Shown here: positions 1 through 6,523 of the stretch, one piece after another
How positions within the stretch are numbered: position 1 is the first letter of the stretch
How the letters are laid out: each line of letters opens with the position of its first letter
Origin: a virus
Lineage: Duplodnaviria > Heunggongvirae > Uroviricota > Caudoviricetes
Virus record (IMG/VR): IMGVR_UViG_2663762945_000006
Span: 1 to 6,523 of that record
Strand: one strand, 5' to 3'
Length of the DNA: 6,523 bases
Position numbers and translations under genes: made by a program
Notes under the pieces: model-generated
What the model saw: the letters and a program-made list of their open reading frames with translations, nothing else
Told to the model about the DNA's origin: nothing
The model's database searches: none

Positions 1-54
1 ATATAGTTAGAGCAATAACATTACCCAGGCGTTCTGGCGTAGACGATTATTCGA

Positions 55-1642
<1,588 letters not shown>

Positions 1643-1868
1643 TCATTTCCCCTTAACGCCGGGGTAGCGGAACAAAAACCTGCTGCATAGTTATTAAAGT
1701 CGAACCCTGCCATCATGTTCTTACGCCTCGGGCTGGCTACTTAACCCCTGACCACTGCCTGGTAACTCGAAGTATTGCCTGGCGTTCTGTGGGGCGGGGT
1801 GGGTTGATGAAATAATGATGCACTTTTAAAGTTATGATGTCAACACTTATAAAGTTAGCTTTTGATCA

Positions 1869-1896
1869 ATAAAAACCGCCTCGTGTGAAGCGGTTC
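1869..1896 (-). terminator. Rho-independent terminator downstream of the parE-like gene
   Basis: Minus-strand RNA would read CCGCUUC-ACAC-GAGGCGG (7-bp stem with one G-U pair, 4-nt loop) followed by UUUUUAUU. On the plus strand the same hairpin is not followed by a U tract. Lies 16 nt downstream of the parE stop (1912-1914). Confidence 0.6.
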
Positions 1897-1911
1897 TGCG
1901 AAAAAAGAGGA

Positions 1912-2193
1912 TTATCCAGGAAATTGTCGTCTGGAGTGGGTGACACTTACTATTTCAACACTCGAAGCGGCTACACGGTACAGAATGATATAGTTAGGAT
2001 GAGCTACAATCTCACGCAAGCCAAACGCTCTGTCGCTTGATGGGTATAAGTACGGATGTTCAGATAAAGCTAAAACACATGTCTCAATGCGAATCTTTAG
2101 CCTGCGTGCGGCATGGAGATTTTCTTTTGCAATATAGGCTACGATCTGACGTAAATCATCACGTGCAGAAGGTAGCCATAAAATGGGCAGCAT
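1912..2193 (-). CDS. parE2: Type II toxin, ParE/RelE superfamily (93 aa), third gene of a paaR-paaA-parE-type three-component TA operon
   Basis: MLPILWLPSARDDLRQIVAYIAKENLHAARRLKIRIETCVLALSEHPYLYPSSDRAFGLREIVAHPNYIILYRV...VEIVSVTHSRR has the ParE-like pattern (W.P.A..DL..I..YIA..N...A.R......) and the C-terminal (E)I(V/L)(S/R)V.H motif. The ATG overlaps the antitoxin stop (TAATG). SD-like GGGAG about 6 nt upstream. Paralog number (parE1 versus parE2) cannot be decided from sequence alone. Confidence 0.8.
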   Translation of the reverse strand: MLPILWLPSARDDLRQIVAYIAKENLHAARRLKIRIETCVLALSEHPYLYPSSDRAFGLREIVAHPNYIILYRVAASSVEIVSVTHSRRQFPG

Positions 2194-2384
2194 TACACAC
2201 TCCCGCTAGTCGCAGCAATTTGGGCAATGAGATTTTCCATTTCTGCCATTACATCATCATGAGGAATTGCAGGGCGCGGATCTGCAAGATTTGCAGCTAC
2301 TTTTGCACGTAGCCATTCGTTGTAATTATTTTCTTGCTCAACGGTTTCAAACTCAGAAACCATCGGCGAAAGGGCAGTGTTCAT
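2193..2384 (-). CDS. paaA2: Type II antitoxin, PaaA2-like (63 aa), partner of the ParE toxin
   Basis: MNTALSPMVSEFETVEQENNYNEWLRAKVAANLADPRPAIPHDDVMAEMENLIAQIAATSGSV. Length 63 aa and the ...NEWLRAKV... motif match my recollection of the PaaA2 antitoxin of E. coli O157:H7. Start chosen at the internal ATG (2382-2384) because a perfect AGGAGG lies 6 nt upstream; the longer 84-aa ORF (to 2447) has no RBS and overlaps the upstream gene. Confidence 0.75.
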   Translation of the reverse strand: MNTALSPMVSEFETVEQENNYNEWLRAKVAANLADPRPAIPHDDVMAEMENLIAQIAATSGSV

Positions 2385-2413
2385 AACATACCTCCTTTGG
2401 CTTATGATGTAGA

Positions 2414-2821
2414 CTATGCTCGGTGCCCTTTCTGGGCAGCGAGCCATCTTGCAACAGTGCGCTCCATTGATTCTTTTTTGTCTTTCATGTCTTTAAGCAT
2501 TTTTTCTTGATCTTCCTCTGGAAATGCTCCGAATGTTTGAAGCAGTTCCATTTGCCTGGGGCCTATTTTCATAGTATCTGGCACCACAACCTGCTCTTCT
2601 TCGTTTGGCGGTAACATAAACCAATATGGGGGATAACCCGTTACTTCAGAAAGTTTATCAAGATTAGCTGTTGATGGACTTGTGATTCCGTGAACCCACT
2701 TTTGTACCGATTGCTGGGCAACACCAATCCTGCGGGCTAGTTCTGCCTGCTTAAGTCCTGTTTTTTCCAGTACCAATTTTATTCGGTACGTGGTTATTTC
2801 AAGGGTGGTCATTCGCTTCAT
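2414..2821 (-). CDS. paaR2: XRE-family HTH transcriptional regulator (135 aa), PaaR2-like; occupies the CI-repressor position of the prophage switch; no S24 peptidase domain
   Basis: N-terminal HTH: ...LEKTGLKQAELARRIGVAQQSVQKWVHGITSPSTANLDKLSEVTGYP... The C-terminal about 60 aa are acidic/lysine-rich with no Ala-Gly/Ser-Lys peptidase signature. Divergent from the Cro-like gene across a 107-bp promoter region, and immediately upstream of and co-oriented with the antitoxin-toxin pair. Start could be ATG at 2821 (probably leaderless) or the in-frame ATG at 2812. Confidence 0.75.
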   Translation of the reverse strand: MKRMTTLEITTYRIKLVLEKTGLKQAELARRIGVAQQSVQKWVHGITSPSTANLDKLSEVTGYPPYWFMLPPNEEEQVVVPDTMKIGPRQMELLQTFGAFPEEDQEKMLKDMKDKKESMERTVARWLAAQKGHRA

Positions 2822-2928
2822 GCATTCATTTTACATAAAAAAAGTGTAACTAGCACAATCAGCTTAAAGGTGTTGATAAACTAACTTTAAAAGTGTATAA
2901 ATCATGGTGATTCACTGGAGATAACGAT
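2822..2928. promoter_or_regulatory. Divergent promoter/operator region between the paaR2-like repressor and Cro-like ydaS
   Basis: Plus-strand candidate promoter: -35 TTGATA (2873-2878), about 17-bp spacer, TG-extended -10 (TGtATAAAT, 2894-2902), SD GGAG (2917-2920), ATG at 2929. Short symmetric elements: TTACA-N9-TGTAA (2831-2849), ACTTT-a-AAAGT (2884-2894), AATCA-tgg-TGATT (2900-2912). The repressor gene starts at the region edge with no obvious SD, consistent with a leaderless transcript. Confidence 0.5.
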
Positions 2929-3195
2929 ATGCATGAATGTTTAAAAAATAAAATTCACCAAAGAGGGTTATCCCAAGCAGGTATTGCTCGTTTGATTGGA
3001 TTACCGCAACAGGTTGTGTCTCGATGGGCTAATGGTCAGCAGGTCCCTGCATCAAGGGTTCTGCAACTTTGTGAGATTATGGCGTGGGAGGTTACCCCCC
3101 ACGAACTCCGACCTGATATTTATCCTAACCCAACAGACGGCTTGCCTGCTGAGTTTCAGACTAGCACACAGCCAGCGACGGGAGTTGATTCATGA
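2929..3195 (+). CDS. ydaS: Cro-like HTH protein, YdaS family (88 aa)
   Basis: MHECLKNKIHQRGLSQAGIARLIGLPQQVVSRWANGQQVPASRVLQLCEIMAWEVTPHELRPDIYPNP...; HTH plus the ELRPDI motif typical of YdaS/Cro-like prophage proteins. Its stop overlaps the ydaT start (ATGA, 3192-3195). Confidence 0.75.
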   Translation: MHECLKNKIHQRGLSQAGIARLIGLPQQVVSRWANGQQVPASRVLQLCEIMAWEVTPHELRPDIYPNPTDGLPAEFQTSTQPATGVDS

Positions 3196-3617
3196 AAATC
3201 AAGCATGAGCACATCCGCATGGCGATGAATGCCTGGGCATATCCTGACGGTGAGAAGGTGCCAGCTGCTGCTATTGCCAGAGCGTATTTTGAACTGGGGA
3301 TGACATATCCCGAGTTGCACAACGACGACAGGCACAACGCGCTCTATCTCAACACCCAAAAGATTTTCCGTTGGCTGGATAAAGACACTCCTGATGCTGT
3401 TGAGAAAATTCAGGCATTGTTACCGGCGATCGAAAGGGCAATGCCACCTCCGCTGGTAGCCCGAATGCGCAGCCACAGTTCCGCTTATTTTCGGGAGCTG
3501 GTGGAGACGCAGGAACGGCTAGTGAAAGATATCGATGATTTCGTTGCATCAGCGATCGTTCTGTTCGACCAGATGAATCGTGGTGGTCCGGCGGGTAATT
3601 CCGTGGCTGTGCATTGA
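3192..3617 (+). CDS. ydaT: YdaT-family protein (141 aa), proposed CII-like regulator / former 'toxin YdaT'
   Basis: MKIKHEHIRMAMNAWAYPDGEKVPAAAIARAYFELGMTYPELHND...; matches my recollection of Rac-prophage YdaT (about 140 aa, same N-terminus). SD-like GGGAG 7 nt upstream. Translationally coupled to ydaS. Confidence 0.75.
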   Translation: MKIKHEHIRMAMNAWAYPDGEKVPAAAIARAYFELGMTYPELHNDDRHNALYLNTQKIFRWLDKDTPDAVEKIQALLPAIERAMPPPLVARMRSHSSAYFRELVETQERLVKDIDDFVASAIVLFDQMNRGGPAGNSVAVH

Positions 3618-3688
3618 CTGAAAATATTTATACCGGATCGCTTCCGGCAATTCGTGAGTAAAAAGATTCGGTCTCAGAAGAGGTGAGT

Positions 3689-4729
3689 ATGGCTAATGCC
3701 TGGCTCAGATTATGGCATGACATGCCAAATGACCCTAAGTGGCGAACAATTTCCAGGGTGTCAGGACAGCCAATCGCAACAGTGATGGCTGTGTATATCC
3801 ACCTTCTGGTGAGCGCGTCACGAAATGTCACGACATGTCACGGCGTGTCACTACGTGGTCACATTGATGTCACAACGGAAGATTTAGCAAGTGCACTTGA
3901 TGTGACGGAAGAAGTAATTGATTCAATTTTGCAGGCGATGCAGGGGCGGGTGCTTGATGGAGATTTAATCACTGGATGGGAAAAACGCCAGGTAGCGAAA
4001 GAGGATAACGGCAACGTTTCGCAAACCGCGAAATCCCCGGCAGAGCGTAAGAGAGCACAACGCGAGAGGGAAAAATTACGAAAACAGAATGAGGGGTGTC
4101 ACGATGAGTCACGCATATGTCACGACATGTCACTACGAGTCACGACAGATAAAGATACAGATAAAGAATTAAACCCCACACATAACGCGCGCGTGCGCGA
4201 GAGTGCTCCGACCAGTGAATCGAACGGTACGCCGTTGCAGGCAGCGGAACCTGATTACCAGGAAAGCCTGAGCGAACCCATCGGGAAGTTTCCGATGGCC
4301 GATGGCTGGCATCCGTCGCCGGATTTTCGACGGCGGGCTGCACTGTGGGGAGTGGCTCTGCCGGAGCCTGAATTTACACCTGCTGAACTTGCCGCCTTCA
4401 GGGACTACTGGGCAGCTGAGGGGAAAGTTTTTACGCAGGTTCAGTGGGAGCAGAAATTCGCCCGTCACGTAAATCACGTCAGGGCGCAGGTTAAACCAGT
4501 CAGCAAGGGGGTGCGTCATACAGCAGCACCAGGTGGCACCGCATCACGGGCAGTTCGGGAAATTCGGGCAGCACGTGAGCAGTGGGAACGTGAAAACGGA
4601 TTTGTCAGCGACGGAAACGGCGTGGAAGCTGTGGGAGCTCATGGGGGAGGTTTATTCAAACCGCTGGACTCAGAAGAACGGGGCCGCACCTTCGAAGCTC
4701 TGGATTGCCCAGATTGGCGCGATGACTGA
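3689..4729 (+). CDS. Phage replication initiator (lambda O functional analogue) with a DnaT-like C-terminal domain; carries two internal iteron arrays
   Basis: ATG at 3689 with AAGAGG 6 nt upstream (the listed ORF begins at GTG 3683). C-terminal region [62 protein letters not shown] closely parallels the E. coli DnaT C-terminal domain (recalled: [61 protein letters not shown]). The position after the cro/cII-like genes and the internal direct repeats fit an O-like initiator. The last about 65 codons overlap the next gene in another frame, so the true 3' end is uncertain. Confidence 0.7.
3817..3873. repeat. Iteron array 1: six direct copies of GTCAC(G) at 10-11 bp phasing
   Basis: GTCAC begins at 3817, 3827, 3837, 3847, 3858 and 3869 (cgTCACGaaatGTCACGacatGTCACGgcgtGTCACTacgtgGTCACAttgatGTCACA). 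An inverted copy GTGAC lies at 3902-3906. Inside the O-like CDS (codons ~43-62). Confidence 0.75.
4097..4167. repeat. Iteron array 2 (five GTCAC(G) copies at 10-11 bp phasing) plus a tandem 12-bp A-rich duplication; candidate replication origin
   Basis: GTCAC at 4098, 4108, 4119, 4129 and 4139. The 17-mer ATGTCACGACATGTCAC is shared with array 1 (3825-3841 and 4117-4133). Followed immediately by ACAGATAAAGAt ACAGATAAAGAa (4145-4167), an AT-rich stretch, and then a (CG)-rich tract at 4184-4199. Confidence 0.7.
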
Positions 4730-5183
4730 ACAGCAAATCAGGCTGGTCTGCCGTCAGTGCATGGACCGCTGCCGGGCGGGTGAAACGTGGCCCCCGGACC
4801 TGGCTGAGTTTGTTGCGCTGATTTCGGAGAGTGGGGCAAATCCATTTGGTCTTACGGTGGATGCCGTGATGGAAGAGTACCGGCGCTGGCGCAATGAATC
4901 CTGGCGGTACGACGGGAGTGATAAATACCCGTGGCCACAGCCTGTGCTGTACCACATTTGCCTCGAGATGCGCACCAGAGGGATTGAACGTCAGATGACT
5001 GAAAGTGAGCTGAAACGACTTGCAGAACGACTGTTGACCAAATGGGCAAAGAATGTTGGTAACGGCATGAGTGTTCCGCCAGTGCGACGACAACTGGAAG
5101 GGCCAAAACACCCGCCAGGGCCAACGCCAATTGAGTTACTGAAACAGGAATATGAGCGCCGGAAAGCGGCTGGTTTTGTCTGA
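4533..5183 (+). CDS. Lambda P-like replication protein (helicase loader), about 180-216 aa depending on start
   Basis: C-terminal half ...[40 protein letters not shown]... parallels lambda P (recalled: ...AESYPWKSNAHYWLVTNLYQNMRANALTDAELRRKAADEL...), and ...[11 protein letters not shown]...[10 protein letters not shown] parallels lambda ...GITTMEQVNAG...SPGQFVAW. Start is ambiguous: GTG 4533, GTG 4575, GTG 4590 or ATG 4641, none with a strong SD. The frame is open from 4473. An ATG at 4722 overlaps the O-like stop (ATGACTGA) but would remove conserved N-terminal residues. Confidence 0.65.
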
Positions 5184-5216
5184 ATTTGAGAAATGATTTT
5201 GTCGGAGGAAATTTTA

Positions 5217-5930
5217 ATGGAAACCGTTTTTGACGCACTGAAAGCACTGAAAAGAGCCTCTTCACAGGAGGTGTCGGCCCGCCTTGGAATCAGCCGCGAA
5301 GATGCTGTCAACGAGCTGTGGAAGCTGAAACGCCGTGGTGAAGCAGATAACAAGGGGTCGATGTGGTGGCTGACGATTGAGGCAACTGAAATGGTCACAA
5401 AAACCACTGCGGAGATGCTGATTAACTCAATTGAACAGCATGGTCCTCAGTCGGCTGACGAACTGGCGTTAATGTTCGGGATTACCTCCCGCCGGGCGAA
5501 TTCAACGCTGGCAATGGCAATAAGCAAAGGTCGTCTGATTCGAGTAAATCAGAACGGTAAATTTCGTTACTGCCTGTCGGGCGATAATTTACCAGCAGAG
5601 CCGAAAGCTGCATCGGTAACGGAAACTGCTGGTAAAGCCTTTCCTCAGACAGCAGGTGTTGCGTTACCAGTCCGGGAAGCGGAAACACAGGAAGAAATTA
5701 AAACTGAAAGTGTGGCGGTCACAGTGCAGTCACAGCCGTCGTTCACCAGAAAGCATCCGGATAGTCTGATTTTACCATCGCTGCATGTGGCTAACCGCGA
5801 ACTGCGCCGGGCAAAAGGTCAGGTTCAGAAGTGGGAGCGAGTCTGTGCTGCGCTGCGTGAGCTGAACAAGCACCAGGATATTGTTCGACAGATTGTCGAT
5901 TCCTCCAGTCGTATTGTGTCGGAAAAGTGA
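5217..5930 (+). CDS. Hypothetical prophage protein (237 aa) with two winged-helix-like segments
   Basis: ATG at 5217 preceded by GGAGG (5204-5208, 8-nt spacer); the listed ORF starts at an upstream ATG (5193) that lacks an RBS. Segments ...[28 protein letters not shown]... and ...[35 protein letters not shown]... look like winged-helix DNA-binding motifs. No family recognised from memory. Confidence 0.6.
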
Positions 5931-5945
5931 TTGCCGGAGGTACTT

Positions 5946-6338
5946 ATGGCAAGAGTATTTACACAGGAAGAGCGGGAAGAAGTGAAGGCGCGCATTGTGG
6001 AATTCGTGCGCCTGAGCGGACGAGAAACTTTTCGACAACTGGCAGATAAAACGGGTGTCAGTAAGACCGCTATTCGTCGTTTATCTGGTGCGCTTGCGGC
6101 CAGTGGTGATGTCTGGCTCTCTGATTGCGGGGTATTTCCATCAGAGCAGGCGTATCGCGTATGGCGTAAGACACCGGAGAAGGCTGCTGACCCGACACTG
6201 ATTCGAAAGTTACCTGACGGAGAAATACGTCGTTACAACAGATGGCAGAACATAATTTGTCGTGAGTGCCGCCAGAGCGAGGTTATGCAGCGTGTGCTGG
6301 CGTTCTATCGGGGAAACTTTCAGGAGGTGATGGAGTGA
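5946..6338 (+). CDS. Hypothetical prophage protein (130 aa) with an N-terminal HTH-like segment
   Basis: ATG at 5946 with GGAGG (5936-5940) 5 nt upstream; the listed ORF starts at 5931. Segment ...GRETFRQLADKTGVSKTAIRRLSGALAASGDV... is HTH-like. Stop TGA at 6336-6338 overlaps the next start (GTGA). Confidence 0.55.
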   Translation: MARVFTQEEREEVKARIVEFVRLSGRETFRQLADKTGVSKTAIRRLSGALAASGDVWLSDCGVFPSEQAYRVWRKTPEKAADPTLIRKLPDGEIRRYNRWQNIICRECRQSEVMQRVLAFYRGNFQEVME

Positions 6339-6523
6339 GGGTGAGAGTTTATATTGCCGGTCCAATGACGGGATATGAAAATTTCAACCGTGAGGCGTTT
6401 CACAAGGCGGAAGAGGAACTGAAACGGGAAGGGCATACCGTCTTAAACCCGGCAGTACTTCCGGACGGGCTGACACAGCCGCACTACATGGATATTTGCA
6501 TGGCAATGATTCGTTGTGTGGAT
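6335..6523 (+). CDS. DUF4406-family protein (nucleoside 2-deoxyribosyltransferase-like fold), 5' part only; runs off the window end
   Basis: Translation (V)RVRVYIAGPMTGYENFNREAFHKAEEELKREGHTVLNPAVLPDGLTQPHYMDICMAMIRCVD has the characteristic (K/R)(I/V)YIAGPMTG...N...F N-terminus of DUF4406 proteins. GTG start at 6335 with AGGAGG at 6322-6327 (7-nt spacer); alternative GTG at 6341. Not in the ORF track because no stop falls within the window. Confidence 0.7.
   Translation, partial: MRVRVYIAGPMTGYENFNREAFHKAEEELKREGHTVLNPAVLPDGLTQPHYMDICMAMIRCVD

Follow-up and report, generated by a model that had tools for sequence, protein, structure and literature searches.

In the oriL origin of phage SPP1, AB boxes bound by the initiator protein G38P precede an AT-rich DNA unwinding element (DUE), all within gene 38, and a fragment of 356 bp was shown to be both necessary and sufficient in vitro (PMC5737612, PMC6316719). 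The origin of phage lambda, ori-lambda, combines iterons with an AT-rich tract in the central part of the O gene, and the iterons adjoining the AT-rich tract are the only ones needed in vitro (PMC7466680). Here, we describe a candidate origin with a similar layout in a stretch of 6,523 nucleotides (nt) from a virus of the Caudoviricetes (IMG/VR record IMGVR_UViG_2663762945_000006, positions 1 to 6,523), the whole of which is referred to as the window. The window includes the early genes of a lambdoid (Rac/Qin-like) prophage of E. coli, and the replication initiator gene of this prophage contains two arrays of short direct repeats, the second of which is followed by an A-rich tract. Judging from comparisons with related loci, we consider it likely that positions 4096-4173 represent the core of the theta-replication origin of the prophage, located in the initiator gene at the boundary between the two domains of its product. 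The relevant features of the gene are as follows:

3689-4729, plus strand: replication initiator gene (open reading frame 3683/3689-4729; the RefSeq start is 3689)
3815-3876, plus strand: array 1, six units of 10-11 nt with the core (T)GTCAC(G), likely accessory initiator sites
3902-3906, minus strand: a lone inverted GTCAC copy, 33 nt past array 1
4096-4146, plus strand: array 2, five units of 10-11 nt with the core (T)GTCAC(G), proposed origin-proximal initiator sites
4144-4173, plus strand: A-rich, purine-rich tract with the 12-nt tandem repeat ACAGATAAAGAt (4145-4167), proposed DNA unwinding element
4186-4199, no strand assigned: the CG tract CGCGCGCGTGCGCG, 14 nt of perfect pyrimidine-purine alternation, encoding NARVRES

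SPP1 oriL is, by analogy of layout, the closest experimentally defined match. In both cases the origin, proven or putative, is placed within the gene for the initiator itself, where the N-terminal and C-terminal domains (N-domain and C-domain) meet, short direct repeats precede an AT-rich DUE, again proven or putative, the initiator has no AAA+ domain and the next gene encodes a separate helicase loader. When read directly, SPP1 gene 38 displayed five units of about 11 nt, CGAAA(C/A)GACA (L170 2939-2990), and then A-rich 9-nt repeats at the same relative position. Unlike SPP1, the window has a DnaT-like C-domain, a lambda-P-like loader and Gram-negative hosts, and its initiator has no significant sequence or profile similarity to G38P, whereas SPP1 is without a second array of AB boxes in the region coding for the N-domain and has its oriR 13 kb away. 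Comparable in the architecture of the C-module are the Rac-type YdaU/YdaV and the DopC/DopE pairs, in which an initiator with a DnaT C-terminal ssDNA-binding motif is likewise followed by a P-like gene (PF17948 and PF06992 in the window). DopCE was described as a DNA-binding (helix-turn-helix) N-domain joined to a DnaT C-terminal motif and followed by a P-like gene, and the DopC loci were reported to be without iteron-like sequences (PMC5509034). The N-domains of these pairs, and hence the repeats, are unrelated to those in the window.

The analogy to ori-lambda extends to the location downstream of the early rightward promoter, with a P-type loader gene as the next gene (PMC7466680; PF06992), to an N-domain that appears to travel with its own iterons as a specificity module, and to the lengthening of the protein by additional iterons, which amounts to 13 amino acids (aa) in the O proteins of Stx phages (PMC7466680) and to 7 aa in the window. 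The original prediction, made by a first reading of the letters, had suggested that the elements mirror ori-lambda, which is accurate for the layout of iterons and AT-rich tract in the middle of the gene and inaccurate for the protein family and the type of iteron. The iterons of lambda are about 19 bp long, have internal dyad symmetry and number four in a single cluster, whereas the repeat units in the window are asymmetric, measure 10-11 nt with a core of 5-6 nt and form two clusters about 230 nt apart, in a gene whose product is not of the O family. Iteron plasmids such as P1, F and RK2 contain separate origin and control sets of iterons, only one of which adjoins the AT-rich opening region. 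The window resembles them in having two sets of identical repeats, one beside an AT-rich region, and differs from them in that both sets are inside the initiator coding sequence and that the units are half as long as a typical plasmid iteron; the likeness to plasmid control iterons consists here of the two sets with the same core.

The copies of GTCAC in array 2 start at 4098, 4108, 4119, 4129 and 4139 on the plus strand, with spacings of 10, 11, 10 and 10 nt, and a 10-nt period was reported across 4098-4147 by Tandem Repeats Finder. Those in array 1 start at 3817, 3827, 3837, 3847, 3858 and 3869. The pattern GTCACN5GTCAC was found six times in the window, each time within the two arrays, as compared to 0.01 expected, and none of 200 shuffles reached six. 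The five phased GTCAC(G) repeats at 4098-4143 noted in the original prediction are thus borne out by starts, spacing and shuffle test, the first array that it mentioned is real and consists of six copies plus the inverted one at 3902-3906, and all elements are indeed located inside the initiator gene, since a single open reading frame holds them. Most loci of the GTCAC clade have an inverted copy at the corresponding position (gene nt 193); it also encodes the conserved peptide LDVT, which makes any role at the DNA level inseparable from constraint on the protein.

To place these repeats in a broader context, we compared 85 loci, comprising the window, five phages and 79 genomes from Gamma-, Beta- and Alphaproteobacteria, Acidobacteria and Desulfobacterota; relatives were also taken from 80 viral contigs and from isolated phages of E. 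coli, Pseudomonas, Aeromonas and Ralstonia. The module of N-domain and arrays was thereby found in isolated, replicating phages of all four of these hosts. At the two array positions (gene nt ~130-180 and ~350-450), the same 5-mer recurred in phased chains of at least three units in 52 of the 85 loci, as compared to none of 1,700 codon-shuffled controls. Array 2, with at least three units, was present in 75 of the 85 loci, the ten remaining ones including two truncated contigs, while array 1 was present in 63. The most distant relatives, in Edaphobacter, Desulfosarcina, Desulfovibrio and an uncultured myovirus, contain array 2 only.

The core itself varies by clade and reads GTCACG, GAACGC, GCAACG or GTAACG. 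When motifs were discovered independently in each array, the cores of the two arrays were identical or overlapped in 52 of 58 loci, as compared to 24.6 on average and 38 at most when array pairs were permuted between loci. The simplest explanation for cores that change together in both arrays is that one protein reads both. The distance between the arrays, taken from the last array 1 unit to the first array 2 unit, has a median of 227 nt and falls within 227-231 nt for 21 of the 52 loci with concordant cores. Within the arrays, the period is not a multiple of three and the core is read in three frames (as CH, SR or VT), and in amino-acid-conserved columns of 22 sequences from the GTCAC clade the identity at third codon positions was 0.87, as compared to 0.57 elsewhere (Mann-Whitney p=3e-5). 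Both observations indicate that selection acts on the DNA. The GTCAC core is moreover identical across hosts whose proteins share only 60-70% identity.

The number of units is more fluid, ranging among close relatives in E. coli from 3 to 9 in array 2 and being either 4 or 6 in array 1. Most relatives have the 4-unit form of array 1, to which the window adds two units, corresponding to 21 nt and 7 codons. Since 10 plus 11 nt preserves the reading frame, the arrays seem to gain and lose units in frame-preserving pairs. The additional units are at 3833-3853 and encode the peptide TCHGVSL. Among the 80 close viral contigs, 75 have six exact copies of GTCAC in array 1, four have four copies and one has five, and the copies in array 2 number 3-9.

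The second array is followed by DNA of unusually low stability. The 11-nt sequence ACAGATAAAGA is duplicated exactly, the copy at 4145-4155 being succeeded by T and that at 4157-4167 by A, which agrees with the 12-bp tandem duplication with a variable last base that had been noted at 4145-4167. A profile of duplex stability, which the original prediction had proposed as a check, was calculated from nearest-neighbor parameters for 30-mers and identified 4144-4173 as the least stable 30-mer of the gene (-31.2 kcal/mol, z=+3.0; window mean -41.6), right beside the most stable one at 4185-4214. Across the 70 loci included in the corresponding comparison, the 30 nt past the last unit of array 2 have an average AT content of 67%, as compared to 45% for the gene, and an average purine content, on the coding strand, of 78%, as compared to 57%. 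The least stable 30-mer in the first 720 nt of the gene was located between -10 and +40 nt of the last array 2 unit in 66 of these 70 loci. With the loci aligned on the last unit, the mean stability z-score reached +2.3 to +2.6 after array 2 and at most +0.9 after array 1.

In the relatives, the tract after array 2 takes the form of a purine-rich YAGATAAAGATA repeat, and 63 of the 65 distinct tracts start with YAGA, 40 of them with YAGATA. The aspartate codons in the tract are almost exclusively GAT (170 GAT and 4 GAC, or 98%), as compared to 47% GAT elsewhere in the same genes, and lysine is encoded by AAA in 76% of cases, as compared to 47%, while the glutamate codons GAA and GAG are unbiased. 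The bias towards GAT and AAA persists even in hosts with 60-67% GC, which argues that the DNA sequence of the tract is constrained beyond the coding of a DK/DT linker. Given that array 2 is the more widespread of the two arrays and adjoins the low-stability tract, we favor array 2 plus tract as the best candidate for the origin core, whereas array 1 looks accessory. The original prediction had singled out the same combination and had suggested that the first array could be auxiliary; the former proposal gains comparative support from the prevalence of the two arrays (75 versus 63 of 85 loci), the location of the least stable segment (66 of 70) and the indications of selection on the DNA, and the latter is consistent with the smaller number of loci and with the lack of a low-stability tract beside array 1.

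Other signals were searched for in and around the tract. The tract could not be read as a series of DnaA-trios, and this interpretation was rejected: a DnaA-trio is 3'-GAT-5', and the tract has 5'-GAT-3' every 6 nt. The window contains no perfect DnaA box (TTATNCACA), and sites with one mismatch numbered 10, as compared to about 5 expected, with none adjoining array 2. A consensus scan for an internal promoter or terminator at the origin yielded matches at chance level, the only terminator-like matches on the minus strand being due to self-folding of the CG tract, and no Rfam family was detected at the gathering threshold.

The initiator consists of 348 aa and its only Pfam match is to the DnaT domain PF17948 (aa 203-269, E=6e-18), in accordance with the E-values of about 1e-20 obtained for the C-domain against DnaT chains in the PDB. 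No match to PF04492 (Phage_rep_O) was obtained in the Pfam scan, and the matches in PHROG were to other initiator families, which places the initiator, as far as profiles can tell, outside the lambda O family. The N-terminal 155 residues very strongly matched the PHROG families phrog_1408 and phrog_3729 (E=3.5e-113 and E=1.1e-90 for the full protein), both annotated as "replication initiation protein," and more weakly phrog_4880 ("replisome organizer," E=2e-5), phrog_10469 (E=1e-7) and "DnaD-like" families. Many close homologs are labeled "phage replisome organizer" by NCBI. The TIGR01714 profile (phage_rep_org_N) matched with E=0.0011 and 19.1 bits, against a cut-off of 49.8, and Pfam gave no match to phage_rep_org_N (PF09681).

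For the N-domain (approximately aa 1-155), an AlphaFold2 (AF2) model was built from 30 homologs, with a mean pLDDT of 70. The model contains helices, two hairpins, one of them a beta-hairpin formed by residues 47-58, and a helix-turn-helix (63-84) between these hairpins, and array 1 encodes residues ~45-62, that is, the predicted beta-hairpin. A Foldseek search with the model gave no match at E <= 0.001; the best match had E=0.12, and the better ones all belonged to winged-helix proteins, either regulators or initiators. Searched against PDB sequences, the profile of the N-domain yielded a spurious match to ribosomal P2 and no other. Taken together, this is suggestive of a winged-helix-like N-domain of the "replisome organizer" type.

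We infer binding, unwinding and origin activity from the sequence comparisons, and propose the following model. In a first step, the winged-helix-like N-domain would bind the (T)GTCACG units of array 2, with the 10-11-nt spacing setting the protomers on one face of the helix so that an oligomer could form. Aided by negative supercoiling and by transcription that starts at the upstream early promoter, this complex would then open the purine-rich tract of low stability at 4144-4173, after which the DnaT-like C-domain and the P-like loader would recruit the host DnaB. Array 1, about 230 nt upstream, would provide additional protomers for a looped or wrapped complex, or serve in titration or autoregulation of the initiator, and would not be the site of opening.

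Several observations weigh against this interpretation. The segment 4144-4173 is not the least stable 30-mer of the window, less stable DNA being found in and around the operator/promoter region and in other intergenic regions. All segments less stable than the tract are intergenic or straddle the start or end of a gene (2824-2955 at the cI/cro operator, 1846-1875 and 173-202), and the least stable DNA of the window is the cI/cro intergenic region. The tract also codes for a charged Asp/Lys linker (DKDTDK), and the protein thus explains part of its composition. Similar AGATA tracts are found at the domain joint of unrelated initiators, which implies that the tract could instead be related to the linker or to recombination, and not to unwinding. 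The DNA-binding fold of the N-domain is only suggestive, given the pLDDT of 70 and the Foldseek E-value of 0.12, and homology to G38P is not demonstrable (hhalign probability 0.3%; TIGR01714 below its cut-off) and is not claimed here. A literature search covering oriJ/Rac, ydaU, origins of replisome organizers, DnaT-like initiators and GTCAC iterons retrieved no description of these repeats. Finally, the prophage copy in the window may be defective, with its left arm replaced by pst genes.

Of the alternative interpretations, the one that fares best is that of a bipartite origin, in which both arrays are required as one unit, for example as a segment of about 330 bp (3815-4173) that is wrapped or looped around an initiator oligomer. 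The shared and co-varying cores, the tightly conserved distance between the arrays and the retention of array 1 in 63 of the 85 loci would all be expected of such a unit, and two precedents point the same way: the sufficient oriL fragment of SPP1 has a length of 356 bp (PMC5737612), and the additional iterons of Stx phages, despite their weak binding, are required in vivo (PMC7466680). However, four distant loci (L005, L124, L166 and L169) retain array 2 and the tract in the absence of array 1, the intervening DNA codes for protein, whose length likewise constrains the distance, and lambda needs only the AT-proximal iterons in vitro (PMC7466680). We regard a bipartite origin as possible but doubtful.

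It is also conceivable, although we think it unlikely, that array 1 or both arrays serve chiefly in regulation, either by blocking or attenuating the early transcript through initiator bound inside its own gene, which would limit the expression of initiator and loader, or by titrating or handcuffing the initiator in the manner of the control iterons of P1- and F-type plasmids. The arrays are indeed located within the transcribed initiator gene and upstream of the loader gene, array 1 is without an adjoining low-stability element and the number of units varies among close relatives, as might be expected of an element that sets dosage. On the other hand, such a role would leave the low-stability, purine-rich tract after array 2 unexplained and is in any case compatible with an origin role for array 2 rather than an alternative to it. 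The idea that the repeats reflect the protein sequence or replication slippage alone, with no cis-acting function of the DNA, takes account of the fact that arrays and tract are coding, that the tract encodes a simple DKDTDK linker and that the number of units varies, but it is very improbable and was rejected on the evidence from frames and synonymous sites, since a 10-11-nt period read in three frames gives no peptide repeat, synonymous positions are conserved, the same core recurs in hosts with 60-70% protein identity, the arrays switch core together and GAT makes up 98% of the aspartate codons in the tract even in GC-rich hosts.

The comparison of relatives also indicates that the initiator gene is a mosaic. 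The N-terminal half (3603-4167) shares about 86% identity with the "O" genes found in the phages vB_EcoS-640R1, Evi and Tritos, while the C-terminal half and the P-like gene (4147-4800 by megablast) show 89-93% DNA identity to Rac-SA53 ydaU/ydaV (92%), PPompW and pPE4. The alignment places the switch between modules inside AGATACAGATAAAGA, and the A-rich tract is thus the crossover point between initiator modules. To judge from these alignments, the N-domain and both arrays are inherited as a single module, and the loader gene is co-inherited with the C-terminal module of the initiator. The N-module is combined with differing helicase-recruiting partners, namely P-like proteins, DnaB and a primase/helicase, and some of its relatives have a C-terminus of the G38P type (PF09524; P0110), which the protein in the window does not have. 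Repeats of AGATA(A/C) were observed at the joint of initiators with unrelated N-domains, namely YdaU of Rac-SA53 (L008 1496-1530) and the initiator of pPE4 (L010 1497-1525). The coincidence of these repeats, at 4147-4167 in the window, with the recombination joint suggests that the tract may double as a homology patch for the exchange of modules. In the initiator of PPompW and an Stx2a phage (L009 1300-1510), another N-module is joined to the same C-module, and six ACCCAAA repeats are located just upstream of the joint; these look like a separate iteron family for the PPompW initiator.

The module structure also bears on the CG tract, which had been suggested to belong to the origin. The tract is present, although the interval first given, 4184-4199, takes in two A's and the CG alternation covers 4186-4199. 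It recurs after unrelated N-modules in Rac-SA53 ydaU and pPE4 and is shortened in PPompW, but it is absent in two relatives that have the iterons and other C-termini (L002, L003), and at this point a third locus (L004) shows no more than a short, unrelated GC-rich stretch. A role as part of the origin is therefore not borne out, since the tract segregates with the exchangeable C-terminal module and not with the iterons; it is the first conserved sequence of the DnaT-like module, outside the module of iterons and DUE. For the same reason, a GC clamp or Z-DNA boundary of the origin was rejected as a conserved feature.

A more speculative proposal, which we consider quite unlikely, links two possibilities: that the peptide encoded by array 1 sets the specificity for the iterons, and that the YAGATA(A/C) repeats serve as a sequence-specific element for loading onto single strands. 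If the first part is true, the recognition element would be written in the very DNA repeats that it reads, and a change of the core would automatically change the reader. Within residues 1-105, the array-1-encoded hairpin at 45-62 is the only segment that segregates with iteron class, and no specificity residues were found outside array 1 in this range, a result confounded by phylogeny; the segregation of the hairpin may also be a passive consequence of the DNA repeat. If the second part is true, the role of the element would resemble that of DnaA-trios or the DnaD recognition element and not that of a generic AT-rich DUE, which would explain why GAT reaches 98% beside unbiased GAA/GAG and why such repeats are present at the joints of unrelated initiators.

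An origin prediction of this kind is familiar and does not overturn current understanding, and the comparative data support well that the layout is conserved across many bacterial groups. The relatives of the N-domain span prophages of Proteobacteria and beyond, yet their annotation marks no origin, and the gene is currently annotated only as a "DnaT-like ssDNA-binding domain-containing protein" or "replisome organizer." The rule that two arrays of 10-11-nt units co-vary and that a YAGATA purine tract comes after the second one would provide origin predictions for hundreds of prophages and several isolated phages. The natural specificity classes (GTCACG, GAACGC and GCAACG) could be used to study how initiators without an AAA+ domain recognize and open DNA, and the proposed unwinding tract has a second role as the crossover point for the exchange of initiator modules.

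The genes around the initiator gene are as follows:

1912-2447, minus strand: ParE-family toxin and PaaA2/RelB-type antitoxin pair
2414-2821, minus strand: cI-like repressor
2929-3195: Cro/YdaS-like gene
3192-3617: YdaT/cII-position gene
4722-5183, plus strand: lambda-P-like helicase loader gene (PF06992, E=1.5e-15; phrog_109 "P-like helicase loader"; RefSeq "replication protein P")
downstream of the lambda-P-like gene: DUF1627 and DUF977 genes

The segment 1603-6057 is 99% identical to a prophage beside potC in E. coli JMF1, where the RefSeq names are "DnaT-like ssDNA-binding domain-containing protein" for the initiator and "replication protein P" for the gene after it. Part or all of the replication module was matched in 2,592 of 5,426 complete E. 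coli genomes, and the full 1.2-kb combination in 658 of them. The initiator gene is present in several prophages per genome, with up to six places in a single genome. Many of the database homologs of the initiator are "partial" proteins that end at contig ends, which suggests that a gene present in multiple copies often breaks short-read assemblies.

The left part of the window is a patchwork. Positions 202-1619 are 100% identical to chromosomal pstA'-pstC', each gene being truncated, and positions 1-201 are a piece of another gene (a YhcH/YjgK-like open reading frame at 55-267, minus strand), while the prophage sequence begins at about 1603, within the ydfA region of related prophages. None of the complete E. 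coli genomes covers at least 80% of positions 1-3000 at one place, and the joints may reflect a rearrangement, a deletion of the left arm of the prophage or a chimeric assembly.

A few minor observations concern the remaining genes. The toxin-antitoxin pair adjoins the prophage repressor gene, and the antitoxin open reading frame overlaps the 3' end of the repressor open reading frame. The DUF1627 gene contains two more copies of GTCAC(AG), 11 nt apart, at 5718-5733 (GGTCACAGTGCAGTCACAGCC), which may be due to chance or may represent a weak additional site for the initiator. In the intergenic region between cI and cro (2824-2905), AAAGTGTA(A/T) motifs are repeated at 2842-2850 and 2890-2898, with a related AAAGGTGTT at 2867, and the AAAGTGTA(A/T) motifs are probably operators.

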